From positions 50,091 through 114,090 of the IMG/VR virus record IMGVR_UViG_3300043774_000178: a DNA stretch of 64,000 nt, one strand, 5' to 3'. Shown piece after piece: positions 7,087 through 40,838 of this stretch. The stretch is from a virus. A program made the position numbers and the translations under genes. The first letter of the stretch is position 1, and the number at the start of each line of letters is the position of its first letter. A model generated the notes under the pieces. The model did no database searches and had not been told where the DNA came from. It was given only the letters and a program-made list of their open reading frames with translations.

Positions 7087-7156
7087 GGTGCGAATTTAAA
7101 AAAAAATAGGAGAGACTACAAGAGCCCCTCCTATTATGCTAACCTAACTGCAATGG

Positions 7157-8413
7157 TTATAAGAATAAATTAGACCCGTTAGAGTCATCATCATCTTTAA
7201 AATCTAAATCAAAATCAAAGAAGTCAGTATCTTTTTTTTCTTCTTCAAGTTTCAGTTCATTCTCCATAGCTACATGATCTTCAGGAGTAGGAGTTATTGA
7301 ATCACCTTCCCAAGCAAATGGTTCTTGCTCTTCAGTAACTTCTGTTTCCCATACTATAGCTTCTAGAACTTTAGTATCTTCTTCAACTTTTTCTATCATA
7401 GCCTCCTCATGAACTTCTACAAATGTTTTATCTTCAGGGATAACTATAGAAACTTCACTAGCAATAACATCATCTTCATATTCACCATCCTCAAGATCTT
7501 CCATAAATGCTTCCCGCATCATTTCAAAATCTTCATCCATACCAATAAATGCATCAGATACTTTAGGATCTGTTACTTCTGCTGACTGAGCATTTGTAAT
7601 TTCTTCTATCTGATCTAGTATATTTGTTTGACCTGGATATGCATACAAAGGATCTATTGGTAAAACCACATCTCCTACTACAGAAACAGATACACCTGGG
7701 GTATCTAATTCTTCTGTAAGTACAAAGTGCAATACTCTCTGATCCTCCATCCACGTTCTAGGATGAGATTGTTGCAAAGCTAGAGTAACATGATTATAGA
7801 ATGCCCATAGGGTATTCTTACCACCATTATAGAAAAAGCTAGGTTTAGTCATCTGATTCCTTACAAAGCTAGCTTGCTCAGTATTAAGTACCTCATACTC
7901 AGCAAATAGGATACCTAGTATCTCAGCTTGTCTTCTATCAGTAAGTTGGATAGACTTCATTTCATTCTTTGCATCTACTAACTGATCATAATACATCATA
8001 GCATTAGTAATCTGAGCTTGCATACTTGCAATTGTATCAGCATCTGCAGAACCAGTATGCTTACGATTATAGCTACCCATATCACCTGAAATCATAACTG
8101 CACCACTAGCATTTATATAAGTACCAATAGCACATTTAAACCTCATTTGTTTATTATAACTGTTTGCCCATGCAAACATCAATGACAACTCGGGATCACT
8201 ATTATACTCTAACTTGTATATACCCTGTGCAATTTGTCCATCATGAGTACATCTGTACTCTTCTTCTACAATTCCAAAACCTTGACTAGTAAGCTCTTGA
8301 AAAGCATAGTCAATAATAGATTCATGAGATATAACAGTGTAAGTGTCCGCATGATTAGGTAGCGGAACATTTACAATATAATCTCTAGTTACGTTTTTAA
8401 TTTTTCTTGGCAT
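7157..8413 (-). CDS. DUF932-like domain protein with long acidic C-terminal tail
   Basis: TYTVISH, WANSYNKQM, RKHTG, TLWAFYNHVTLAL; D/E-rich last ~150 aa. Confidence 0.6.
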   Translation of the reverse strand: MPRKIKNVTRDYIVNVPLPNHADTYTVISHESIIDYAFQELTSQGFGIVEEEYRCTHDGQIAQGIYKLEYNSDPELSLMFAWANSYNKQMRFKCAIGTYINASGAVMISGDMGSYNRKHTGSADADTIASMQAQITNAMMYYDQLVDAKNEMKSIQLTDRRQAEILGILFAEYEVLNTEQASFVRNQMTKPSFFYNGGKNTLWAFYNHVTLALQQSHPRTWMEDQRVLHFVLTEELDTPGVSVSVVGDVVLPIDPLYAYPGQTNILDQIEEITNAQSAEVTDPKVSDAFIGMDEDFEMMREAFMEDLEDGEYEDDVIASEVSIVIPEDKTFVEVHEEAMIEKVEEDTKVLEAIVWETEVTEEQEPFAWEGDSITPTPEDHVAMENELKLEEEKKDTDFFDFDLDFKDDDDSNGSNLFL

Positions 8414-37929: not shown

Positions 37930-38121
37930 ATACTGACCAATAGCCATATTCTTAAATTGTATGTGGAGTATGAGTAGGGATTATTCATACTGACCAAGGT
38001 TGTTGTAGATATGTGGTGGTTGATTATCAACTAGTTAGCTCTTAATGAATCTTAATTAATCCATAGTAACTTCAATAACATACTAGTTTATCACTAGTAT
38101 ATACTGACCATGTATTGACCA
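37930..38121. repeat. ATACTGACCA direct repeats
   Basis: Copies at 37930, 37987, 38101 and variant GTATTGACCA at 38112. Confidence 0.7.
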
Positions 38122-38239
38122 TACCTTTACAACCCCACTCTGTTTTGAGCTGTTTAACTTAAGCCGCAGACGAAGTCTGCTTAATAGCAAAAACAATAAC
38201 CCTACACTGTATATCAGTATAGGGTCATTGTGGATTGGG

Positions 38240-38635
38240 TTAAATCTCAGCCTCAGCTTGTTCCTCAATCACAAAGCCAAACATGGATGCAGTAGTAACT
38301 ACAGCACTTGCAAGATGGCTTAGGGTCCAAAGTATGATGAGCTCACCATTCTCATCGCGCTTAGCATCCTGTGTAGTAGGATCCCACACAGTACTAGCTT
38401 TAGCACTGTACTTACGTCCTACAACAAACTCTGCATCAGCATGGTTATAGGTACCTGCATAAACCTGTGCTGTAGTAGCAATGCCATCTACATCAATGGT
38501 TGCGAGTTTATACTCAGTACCATTAGAGTTGGTGAATGTTTGTGCACTAAGTGGTGCAACAAGCTTAGCACTTTTACGCGCTTCATAGCTAATTGTTCCA
38601 TTAGCTAAGTCTACTCTTTTCATTTTCATAATCAT
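38240..38635 (-). CDS. Early-region hypothetical protein (OB-fold-like?)
   Basis: 131-aa beta-rich ORF downstream of motif 38676. Confidence 0.65.
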   Translation of the reverse strand: MIMKMKRVDLANGTISYEARKSAKLVAPLSAQTFTNSNGTEYKLATIDVDGIATTAQVYAGTYNHADAEFVVGRKYSAKASTVWDPTTQDAKRDENGELIILWTLSHLASAVVTTASMFGFVIEEQAEAEI

Positions 38636-38728
38636 AAAAATTAGAAATTAAACAATCATTTATCCAACTTAGTTATGAGCTGTTTAATAAAAAAGCCGCA
38701 TGCGTAGCATGCTACAAGTGTGGTTAGC

Positions 38729-38826
38729 AATTCCCACTTGGGTATATATTATTACCCATTATGTGAATACAAATTCCCACTTGCTATTAAAACCTTCCCG
38801 TGTGAAGAGTTTGAAATTCCCACTTG
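38729..38826. repeat. Three AATTCCCACTTG repeats at exact 43-bp period
   Basis: Copies at 38729, 38772, 38815, separated by unique 31-bp spacers. Confidence 0.85.
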
Positions 38827-38843
38827 AGTAGAAAAAAAGGGGA

Positions 38844-39110
38844 TTATTCATCCCCTATTAATCTCATGTCTGTGGTTTGAGCTAAATCATTAAGATATTC
38901 AAAGCTCTGTTTCATACTCATAAACAGATTTGCTAATGTCCAATCACATGTTGTAGGATTTCCTGGTCCTTTATAGTAAGTACCATACTTCTTTGTTTTT
39001 GGATCATAAAAGTAGAACCCCATGATATCTATATTTCTACTCATGAATAGTTCTTTCATTTTCCAACGGAGATCCTTTAGCATTTCTAATTCTATTTCTT
39101 TCTTTGTCAT
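38844..39110 (-). CDS. Early cassette hypothetical protein
   Basis: Motif upstream, terminator overlapping stop. Confidence 0.65.
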   Translation of the reverse strand: MTKKEIELEMLKDLRWKMKELFMSRNIDIMGFYFYDPKTKKYGTYYKGPGNPTTCDWTLANLFMSMKQSFEYLNDLAQTTDMRLIGDE

Positions 39111-39170
39111 GATATATAGTTTTAGTTAATAATTGTGAGCTGTTTAAAGAGGTAAATAATAAAGGGGATA

Positions 39171-39392
39171 TTACTCCCCTTTATTAAGATGTTGTTTTAA
39201 CATCTTAATTAAATGCTCAGCTTGTTCATTGCTTAATTTAATTATAGCAATTTCAGCTGAATCAAATGACATAAAAAGTTCTAACTTTTCTTTACCATTT
39301 GATTGTACAGAAATACATACATCTTGCCCATCTAATTCATTTAAGCTTGATGATGTCTTTGCATTATTAATAATGTTGTTTAGTATATTCAT
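39171..39392 (-). CDS. Early cassette hypothetical protein
   Basis: Motif upstream, terminator overlapping stop. Confidence 0.65.
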   Translation of the reverse strand: MNILNNIINNAKTSSSLNELDGQDVCISVQSNGKEKLELFMSFDSAEIAIIKLSNEQAEHLIKMLKQHLNKGE

Positions 39393-39468
39393 AACAATAA
39401 ATTTTAATACTAGTTATGAGCTGTTTATATTTAAAAAAAGAAGAGGAGCCTAAGCCCCTCCACCTTAA

Positions 39469-39687
39469 TCAGATGTCATCCTCCATGTTGATGGTAGGAC
39501 GTAACTGTGCTATGTCTGCATCTTGATACAGAGAGTCACGGTACTTAACAAGTTCACGTAATGATAAGCAGTCCATAGCCTCAATGAGTGCTTGCTCTTG
39601 AGCCTTGTGTGGACGTAGGAATAGTATCCCTGCAATCTCCATTACTACATCATTTTTGTTTTCTTTTGCTTTAGTTAAATTAAACAT
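39469..39687 (-). CDS. Early cassette hypothetical protein
   Basis: Motif upstream; GAGGGGC-TTAG-GCTCCTC plus T-tract downstream. Confidence 0.65.
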   Translation of the reverse strand: MFNLTKAKENKNDVVMEIAGILFLRPHKAQEQALIEAMDCLSLRELVKYRDSLYQDADIAQLRPTINMEDDI

Positions 39688-39750
39688 GATAAATAAATTT
39701 TAAGGTTCATATTAGTTTTGAGCTGTTTATTCTGGTAAGTAAAAAGGGGA

Positions 39751-39945
39751 TTATATTTTCCCCTCTTCACTCAATTCTATGATAGTCATCAGTGCAGCAA
39801 AGATGGATATTAATCCCCCCACTACTACGTATCCTGATTCACTAGCAATAGTACTGAATCCACACTTAGGACATATTAAGAATATGAACCCAGCACCTGC
39901 AAGGTAATACCCGCAGAATGTTACTAAAAATAAAAATGTTTTCAT
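39751..39945 (-). CDS. Early cassette small membrane protein
   Basis: Two TM helices with CPKC loop. Confidence 0.65.
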   Translation of the reverse strand: MKTFLFLVTFCGYYLAGAGFIFLICPKCGFSTIASESGYVVVGGLISIFAALMTIIELSEEGKI

Positions 39946-39994
39946 AGCTTATAATTTTAAGTATAGTATATGAGCTGTTTAAAATAAATGGGGA

Positions 39995-40084
39995 TTAATA
40001 TCCAATCCCCATTGCAAAGCAATACAACTCTAGTAAGAACCAGAGTATGATTGCAATTTTGTAACCTCCATCTAGATACTTCAT
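39995..40084 (-). CDS. 29-aa hydrophobic peptide
   Basis: MKYLDGGYKIAIILWFLLELYCFAMGIGY; ATGA overlap with upstream gene. Confidence 0.5.
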   Translation of the reverse strand: MKYLDGGYKIAIILWFLLELYCFAMGIGY

Positions 40085-40236
40085 GATTCCTGTATAAATA
40101 GTGAAGAAACACCTGCAACTCCTGCAAGTGCAAATAGTACTAGCCACCACTGGCTTTCACCATCAATCAATGCACCGATTGAGATAGTCATTACACCAGC
40201 TAAATAAATCTGAACCAATCTTAATACTTTTTTCAT
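40081..40236 (-). CDS. 51-aa two-TM membrane protein
   Basis: MKKVLRLVQIYLAGVMTISIGALIDGESQWWLVLFALAGVAGVSSLFIQES; motif upstream. Confidence 0.6.
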   Translation of the reverse strand: MKKVLRLVQIYLAGVMTISIGALIDGESQWWLVLFALAGVAGVSSLFIQES

Positions 40237-40301
40237 GATACTTGTTTTATAGTTTAGATATAGTACATGAGCTGTTTATATTAAAAAGAAAGAAAAGAGG
40301 A

Positions 40302-40466
40302 TTACTCCTCTTTCTTTCTACACACGTTGAATATAACGTACTCTCCGGCAGTATGAATCTGATACTTCTTAAGAGTTTTAGCAGTCAACCATTGGTTAAG
40401 CTTTTGTTGCATCTGAGTTAACGCTTTGGAATCAGATGCAGGAATTGAAAATATATCTACTCGCAT
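40302..40466 (-). CDS. 54-aa early protein
   Basis: MRVDIFSIPASDSKALTQMQQKLNQW...; motif at 40495; terminator overlapping stop. Confidence 0.6.
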   Translation of the reverse strand: MRVDIFSIPASDSKALTQMQQKLNQWLTAKTLKKYQIHTAGEYVIFNVCRKKEE

Positions 40467-40838
40467 AATACAAAATTTAGTTTAAGTACAGTCTTGAGCT
40501 GTTATACCTATATGTATATAATATATAATACTTTGCGCGTGTATAATATATACATGAGCTTGGTTGTGTCACATGATACAACACATACTATATACAATAT
40601 AGTACCCATAGTAACTCACATAGCCTAAGCAAAGTATTGAGCTGTTGCATGCAAAACATTTTCTCCTGGAAAGAATTACTTGATTTATTCTATATATATG
40701 AGATGCCTTGCTGTAGAAGCATAGGGGGTGCCCCAGGTTTGCGCGGTGGGTGGGGTCTATATATTAAGGACCCATCACAATCTCTAGTATACTGTGAAAC
40801 CAAATACACCATAATAGTTTTTGATATATCTTTACACT

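Follow-up and report, generated by a model that had tools for sequence, protein, structure and literature searches.

The window analyzed here, a 64,000-nt stretch of a virus record, carries among its early genes an array that is a conserved, mobile, protein-free module, built of three evenly spaced copies of a single 15-nt motif. This module most likely docks a protein, and we tentatively favor a reading in which the repeats, which lie behind an intrinsic terminator and ahead of the next early promoter, are helically phased sites on DNA that are bound by a conserved protein of the host or of the phage core. Few known phages are as abundant as the crAss-like ones, and the workings of their early regions are almost wholly obscure. 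The array is a sharply defined noncoding element of about 100 nt, which is common in lake populations, is subject to strong purifying selection, and moves as a unit from phage to phage with no linked protein gene. Identifying its ligand would reveal a novel regulator of early phage transcription or, alternatively, a host factor that the phages must neutralize, and either outcome would provide a handle on the hosts of these phages.

We infer that the virus is a freshwater crAss-like phage, rather than an N4-like one, because of the DFDVD motif in a 4076-aa ORF and the scarcity of Shine-Dalgarno leaders. The ORF lies just upstream of the window (G000:C1:38442-50672) and has the motif at residue 2518; in crAss-like phages, DFDxD forms the catalytic motif of the virion polymerase (bioRxiv 10.1101/2020.03.07.982082). 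Searches for Pfam, PHROG, and PDB sequence matches to this ORF returned none, and the DFDVD motif is the sole pointer to its being a putative virion RNA polymerase. A Shine-Dalgarno-like leader precedes 4 of 75 long ORFs, a scarcity that we take to fit a Bacteroidota-type host. The plus-strand block of the genome holds tail-fiber and structural genes, and the minus-strand block holds small ORFs with no family match followed by replication genes, namely those for a DnaG-like primase, a DnaB-like helicase, an AAA_24 protein, a PD-(D/E)XK nuclease, UDG, and ThyX. An early promoter-like motif, AACAGCTCA, is present in nine copies, on the minus strand only and confined to positions 38146-40638 of the window (2.5 kb), each with a terminator before it and a small gene after it. 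This stretch constitutes the early cassette region, with the array sitting between cassettes 7 and 8. Viral contigs contain hundreds of relatives of a ferredoxin-like gene at 40821. The cumulative GC-skew minimum falls near the array; it coincides with a switch in gene orientation 2 kb away and leaves the array unresolved.

On the plus strand, the exact 12-mer AATTCCCACTTG occurs at positions 38729-38740, 38772-38783, and 38815-38826, and the 114,090-bp virus record has no further copy; the two 31-bp spacers are unlike each other in sequence, and the unit period is 43. An earlier note, made from the sequence alone, had described just such a 12-bp repeat with unique 31-bp spacers at an exact 43-bp period, and its exact copies are there; the length of 12 bp holds for exact identity in the window, but the conserved unit is longer, about 15 nt. 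By a rough estimate, three exact 12-mers at two equal gaps are expected about 1e-8 times per 64 kb, which is far beyond chance, and the nonrandom nature of the array is confirmed by its conservation in other phages. As the surrounding genes are all on the minus strand, we read the array on that strand, where the repeat takes the form CAAGTGGGAATT. A plus-strand ORF of 43 aa (38700-38831) covers the array; since 43 is not a multiple of 3, this ORF reads the repeat in three frames, and the repeat is therefore not a coding one. A blastn search of a phage database with 3 kb around the array gave no match, a literature search on the motif strings returned nothing relevant, and a putative overlap of the contig ends was not confirmed.

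Along the direction of transcription (minus strand), the array opens with repeat 1 (38815-38826), which is invariant in all relatives and in four metagenome studies. It is followed by the 31-nt spacer alpha (38784-38814), with a possible hairpin AAAC-CTTC/GAAG-GTTT that would hold an invariant CGG in its loop; by repeat 2 (38772-38783), an exact and likewise invariant copy; by the 31-nt spacer beta (38741-38771), which is rich in A/T and in TA steps and has a small GGGTA/TACCC pairing; and by repeat 3 (38729-38740), the right edge of the mobile module, from which point the relatives differ downstream. On the upstream side lie an 88-aa ORF (38844-39110, minus strand) that has no family match and is context outside the module, its predicted intrinsic terminator (38838-38856, minus strand), and the left junction, comprising the terminator T-run and CTACT (38827-38837, minus strand), which is the same behind four different upstream sequences. 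On the downstream side are a degenerate inverted copy of the repeat on the plus strand, CAAGTGTGGTT (38715-38725), a hairpin followed by GGCTT (38693-38712, minus strand) that is probably part of the next promoter and lies outside the array, the early promoter-like motif TAAACAGCTCA (38677-38687), one of the nine minus-strand copies, and the 131-aa ORF that this motif precedes (38240-38635, minus strand). The inverted copy had been reported in the earlier note and is present; it is not conserved in two close relatives (L328 and L342), and a single-nucleotide polymorphism falls at 38715. The 131-aa ORF, which is again context only, has no family match, and its homologues are limited to one other viral contig and three protein clusters; more generally, the neighbors of the array are ORFs of 51-131 aa, none with a family match. 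In the window and its close relatives (the window group), the array starts 5 nt past the terminator T-run. No early promoter motif precedes it, the next promoter lies downstream, and the gap from the terminator to repeat 1 is too short to hold a promoter.

Two minus-strand hairpins with three-base loops, GCATGC-TAC-GCATGC (38693-38712) and GCAGAC-TTC-GTCTGC (38161-38180), share an arrangement in which GGCTT comes next and then the early motif, the second hairpin preceding the motif copy at 38157. The GCATGC hairpin also lies upstream of the same 131-aa gene in L004, there behind a different repeat array, and its conservation as a hairpin is supported by the compensatory variant GCTTGC-TAC-GCAAGC in L328 and L342. 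Since the T-run is missing at the first hairpin in L004 and at the second hairpin, these structures are probably promoter linked and not terminators. Another repeat family occupies a noncoding stretch of about 200 nt (window 37930-38130, minus strand) that comes right after the last AACAGCTCA motif (38147-38157) with its hairpin; in this family, TGGTCAGTAT occurs three times (period 57 and 114) along with a variant, TGGTCAATAC; given its location downstream of an early motif, it is probably in a transcribed leader or noncoding RNA. L310 has a similar sequence, CGGTCAGTATA, on the upstream side of its array.

When viral and metagenome contigs were scanned for the pattern, at least nine further environmental phage contigs proved to carry this array, among them two more near-complete genomes. 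Its close bearers are L304 (on the same contig as L005 and L089), L347, L328, and L342, and the more distant ones are L310 (with four copies), L316, L359, L085, L233, and L236; L085 belongs to the 116.7-kb genome G006 and L233 to the 125.9-kb genome G007, whose GC content is 25.9% versus 33.8% for the window genome. A further locus, L345, shows eight motif copies at 42-43 nt in a 0.9-kb noncoding region of a 271-kb metagenome contig, one of them within a perfect 16-bp palindrome. A logo of 32 units defines the conserved core as 15 nt, cCCAAGTGGGAATTT on the minus strand, with invariant positions G, T, G, G, G, A, and A and nearly invariant flanks; an AT-rich tATA is placed 6-9 nt before the core and TTT(G) directly after it. 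The motif ends in a T-run. Among nine nonredundant arrays on different contigs, 21 of 23 intervals measure 41-44 nt, the number of repeats ranges from 3 to 8, and the spacers range from near identical to unalignable. Spacer alpha can be aligned in 10 arrays, with C27, G28, and G29 invariant; spacer beta has diverged in the relatives at constant length. The earlier note had held that a repeat or period not conserved in close relatives would argue against any function, and had proposed comparing their copy number and spacer content: both repeat and period are conserved, while copy numbers vary and spacers have diverged. In all seven phage contexts the motif points in the sense of the early genes, and in the window genome (G000), G006, and G007 the array sits 0.4-2.4 kb into the early region. 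Loci of other phage kinds (L209/L222 and L214), in which the 8-nt core recurs three times at 39-42 nt with different flanks, were rejected as members, and putative "GGGAA" half-sites at half the period were likewise set aside: the small peak at +22 stems from homologous alpha spacers, of which the truly invariant part is CGG. In bacterial genomes, at least 71 runs have three copies of the 8-nt core; those listed are all ORFs or tandem repeats of whole units, with no counterpart of the array among them.

Comparison with L328 shows the array to differ at 7 of 98 positions, which are distributed as 0 of 36 in the repeats and 7 of 62 in the spacers. The nucleotide identity to this relative is 93% for the array and 72% for the adjoining 131-aa gene, and even the spacers are better conserved than the neighboring gene. 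In the contigs of four metagenome studies no variant falls within the three 12-mers; single-nucleotide polymorphisms are seen at 38757, at 38787/38788 (three studies), and at 38715, and many more in the flanking genes. One sequencing run (X2) contains an alternative beta half-spacer and both downstream versions, with a loose end at 38729. The motif is under purifying selection.

The junction consisting of the T-run, CTACT, and repeat 1 is common to the window, L304, L328, L342, and L347, and what lies on either side of the array changes. The gene upstream is the same in the window and L342 and a different one in L304 and L328. Downstream of repeat 3, the hairpin and the 131-aa gene follow in the window, L328, and L342, and two copies of a second kind of repeat, TTCTTGGATTCC, 70 nt apart, follow in L304 and L347; in L004, the 131-aa gene and its hairpin are preceded by this second kind of repeat instead of the array under study. 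In natural populations the array is kept while the upstream 88-aa cassette is deleted (X7) or replaced (X9), with contig joints at 38835 and 38855 in X7 and X9; in X9 the array contig in which the cassette is replaced has about tenfold the depth of the contig with the upstream cassette of the window. In five near-complete genomes whose ferredoxin-like protein is 89-92% identical, no such array is found anywhere. The array is thus a common, mobile, and dispensable accessory module. The earlier note had placed it in a "cassette slot," which is right and can be sharpened, in that the array is itself a mobile module with left and right edges of its own. No ORF within 3.5 kb of the array is shared among the contexts beyond the closest relatives, and when all ORFs of G000 were compared with the array-less genomes G001, G002, G003, and G005 and the array-bearing G006 and G007, no gene tracked the array. 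The early promoter-like motifs differ among the bearers (AACAGCTCA here, CTAACCC..ACT in G006, AACAACTTA in L310, and TACCTCTT in L304), which suggests that early promoter specificity evolves fast. With the promoter motifs varying and the array motif constant, the ligand should be a host factor or a core phage protein.

Other repeats occupy comparable places in these genomes. A third family, ATTCTTGGATTCCTA(A), consists of two copies 70 or 117 nt apart (L004 3781-3912; L005 2393-2475 on the minus strand, the same contig as L304; L116 12364-12448; L347 about 860); it is found in the slot of the array upstream of the 131-aa gene in L004 and directly after the array in L304 and L347, and its spacer is partly conserved between L304 and L116. 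The array of L345 (6600-7250, minus strand) is adjoined by GGTATTAAAGAGGTATT-like and TTTTAAGAGA-like direct repeats, three times each, which lie between divergent genes with no family match. The sequence TACATATAGT recurs three times with a 40-bp period in four contigs (L057 1695-1784, L067 2710-2799, L071 144-233, and L075 1472-1561), and in L057, L067, and L075 this set is located about 100-180 bp upstream of the ferredoxin-like gene in a divergent intergenic region. Directly upstream of the array in G006, at about 66,800-66,880 (L085 minus 7115-7230), lies an "empty cassette," in which no ORF separates an early promoter motif from the hairpin and T-run that begin about 10 nt behind it; behind a T-run, AGTAATTAG is duplicated on both sides of this cassette.

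In the reading that we tentatively favor, the three invariant 15-bp motifs would serve as recognition sites for one trans-acting protein, itself conserved across hosts or part of the phage core, and would most likely be read as double-stranded DNA. A center-to-center distance of 41-44 bp is close to four helical turns and would put all sites on the same face of the helix. The TA-rich spacer is predicted to be easily bent, and the bound proteins could then interact in a single nucleoprotein complex, sitting right behind the intrinsic terminator and ahead of the next early promoter. There it may act as a barrier or switch for early transcription at the boundary between cassettes, or else titrate the bound factor; a role as a gene-specific operator is unlikely, since the downstream genes differ. 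Of the features expected of phased sites, which include a protein that binds them, a conserved site and a whole-turn spacing that is kept when the spacers change are seen. The strict 41-44-bp period retained over diverged, TA-rich spacers would argue for DNA, although the constant spacer length could come in part from common descent, and the palindromic copy in L345 and the degenerate inverted copy in the window fit duplex recognition. RNA structure predictions point the same way to the extent that RNAalifold found no consensus structure, the fold z-scores of the spacers are mixed (mean z -0.9, equal on both strands) with those of L345 unstructured, and the predicted exposure of the motif in RNA is 0.38 versus 0.38 in shuffled controls. 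Pulling against DNA sites are the gene comparisons, which yielded no candidate for the binding protein and no consistently adjacent gene; the L233 array, which lies between a promoter-like site and a strong terminator, both in the sense of the motif, and looks like a small transcription unit; and the spacers, which show some apparent compensatory changes in the alpha stem and whose conservation above that of the neighboring gene would be needless if they only set a length. The earlier note had offered either phased protein sites or a minimal repeat-spacer RNA, and of this proposal the notion of a multivalent recognition array stands, with motif and period conserved, while its guide form is rejected and its iteron form has become unlikely.

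The main alternative, possible if doubtful, is a small noncoding RNA, in which a minus-strand transcript shows CAAGUGGGAAUUU three times between variable stem-loops and acts in trans, either as a decoy or sponge of a conserved RNA-binding factor or as a triple seed, during host takeover or counterdefense. The order in L233/G007 (upstream terminator, promoter-like site with a TACATTTG box, array, terminator) fits such a unit, and the terminator after the array has an 11-bp stem, a T7 run, and a fourth partial copy of the motif. The G006 array has a phage-type early promoter motif at about 80 nt on its upstream side, oriented as the array is, although a hairpin and T-run follow that promoter motif. 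In the window group, however, only 5 nt part the array from a terminator T-run, and a promoter motif is missing. The motif keeps the early-gene sense in the seven phage contexts. A product acting in trans would suit its independence of neighbors and the want of a linked gene, and the conservation of the spacers above that of the adjoining gene also speaks for this reading; the early intergenic regions of the crAss-like phage phi14:2, very highly transcribed as noncoding RNAs of unassigned function, offer a precedent (bioRxiv 10.1101/2020.03.07.982082). The alpha stems vary around an invariant CGG loop with two-sided changes in 5 pairs versus 2.6 in shuffles, and 73% of cells are paired versus 66% in shuffles, figures that were each reached by 6 of 500 shuffles and that form a weak test, as the structure was drawn from one of the sequences. 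The hairpins that the earlier note saw in the two spacers do pair in the window but are inconsistent across relatives and have no RNAalifold consensus; the sense strand folds no better than the other, the motif is not preferentially unpaired, Rfam gives no match, and a flexible RNA would not demand so strict a period of 41-44 nt. An overlapping and rather unlikely idea is a nucleic acid decoy, whether RNA or replicating DNA, whose three 15-nt motifs would soak up one conserved host factor early in infection. If true, the target might be, for example, a defense sensor or global regulator of the Bacteroidota-type host, and the module would be a protein-free accessory cassette for counterdefense or takeover, shuffled between phages like the small early genes nearby.

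It is improbable that the repeats are tandem, sequence-specific signals at which the RNA polymerase of the phage itself would stop or pause, backing the terminator and insulating the next early unit: their orientation is always that of transcription, the array lies 5-30 nt past a terminator T-run in the window group and G006/L359, the motif ends in a T-run, and it is absent from all genes of the genome, but promoter specificity has diverged among these phages while the motif is invariant, a row of stops would work without a constant 43-nt period, in L233 the array is followed by a normal terminator, and the absence of a 12-mer elsewhere is uninformative. Three tandem promoters, in which a TTG-type box after each repeat and a TA-rich box 17-18 nt on would set transcription starts at the repeats, are a quite improbable solution; the logo does have TTT(G) after the core and tATA 6-9 nt before it, and the beta unit reads TTGTAT-N18-TATATA, yet these hexamers are not the most conserved part, alpha-type units have no good -10 box, a promoter scan of the minus strand of the array found nothing above shuffles, the motif is upstream of no other gene, and the units do not contain the -7 box TAnnTTTG of the Bacteroidota-type host that the Shine-Dalgarno-less leaders suggest. 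Absence from the five near-complete close relatives argues against a replication origin or packaging site, which we consider very unlikely even though there is a single locus per genome with direct repeats at a helical period, AT-rich repeats adjoin it in G006/L359, and the GC-skew minimum is near; the loci examined have no substitute 43-period array near the ferredoxin-like gene, the skew minimum coincides with the orientation switch, no linked initiator gene was found, and it counts further against origin iterons that no gene covaries with the array. That the array has no function, being a recombination scar or selfish repeat, would be in keeping with its accessory and mobile nature and is nonetheless a slim prospect given a motif that is invariant across genomes of 26-34% GC and four studies while its surroundings vary.

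Least probable, to a degree that we regard as near negligible, is a CRISPR-like, TIGR-like, or other guide array, for which the repeat-spacer look and the one alternative half-spacer in a natural population might speak; the earlier note had entertained a guide-like RNA. That suggestion fails on the spacers, which are inherited and diverge slowly rather than turning over, and none of which matches the genome; targets are lacking, there is no Tas or Nop protein, the repeat measures 12-15 nt, and the box rules are not obeyed. The repeat (12 nt exact, about 15 nt conserved) contrasts with the identical repeats of about 21 nt or more of CRISPR and virus-borne mini-arrays, and the spacers are homologous across phages with divergence by point changes, their longest match in their own genome being 13 nt. 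In Rfam scans no CRISPR-DR family scored, and neither the gathering threshold nor an E-value cutoff brought up anything meaningful for the array. Repeat 1 with the upstream UUUCUACU presents what we take to be a resemblance to a Cas12a handle; this was rejected, as it fits one repeat only and has no Rfam support. Arrays of GTGGGAAT at a 44-74-nt period were absent from 401 sampled genomes of the phylum of a Flavobacterium MAG, which may not be that of the host. TIGR units are about 36 nt long, with alternating edge and loop repeats, two 9-12-nt spacers, and box C (CCA) and box D (TG) (PMC12045711; bioRxiv 10.64898/2026.09.09.750476); with a 43-nt unit, one conserved block, and no intervals of the CCA-9 nt-TG type, the array does not qualify by these rules (PMC12045711; TIGRFinder preprint). 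A search of the genome for the Nop domain (PF01798) gave nothing at E<=1, though it is not exhaustive, as Tas proteins are remote from this Pfam model. Two other families were discarded: a ToxI-like type III antitoxin, which would call for tandem repeats identical throughout with a toxin endoribonuclease gene behind them, in view of a unit of which only about a third is conserved and downstream genes that differ and have no family match, and a Chi-like hotspot, whose 9-mer counts of 0-40 per genome in 41 genomes, of a phylum that may not be the host's, resemble those of a reversed control.

Several known systems nevertheless bear comparison with the array. Mini-CRISPRs, RNA anti-CRISPRs, and TIGR arrays (PMC12045711) share with it a phage-borne repeat-spacer look and, in one relative, a terminator after the array, and differ in that its repeat is too short, its unit is 43 rather than 36 nt, and its spacers are not variable guides. 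The phage phi14:2 is of the same kind, with a giant virion protein bearing DFDxD and long noncoding early stretches (bioRxiv 10.1101/2020.03.07.982082). Those regions are 0.7-1.7 kb long, with no comparable threefold repeat and no sequence similarity to the array. CsrB and RsmZ are small RNAs that act as protein sponges through a motif with a GGA triplet. Like them, the array has several short motif copies between stem-loops, is terminator ended in one relative, and would act in trans; unlike them, it has a motif of 13-15 nt that is not predicted to be exposed, and its transcription is putative. We know of no use of CsrA in the likely host phylum. On the DNA side stand the arrays of directly repeated sites, as in the iterons of plasmids and phages, the operators of P2-type repressors with half-sites two turns apart, and the sopC centromere of the F plasmid with its 43-bp units. 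Relative to these, the present array is dispensable, has no linked initiator, repressor, or ParB gene, and is spaced at four turns instead of the usual two; whereas sopC repeats its whole unit, the array conserves 15 of 43 bp. What it has in common with all of them is the layout, in the form of short same-orientation repeats with whole-turn spacing at one locus between transcription units.
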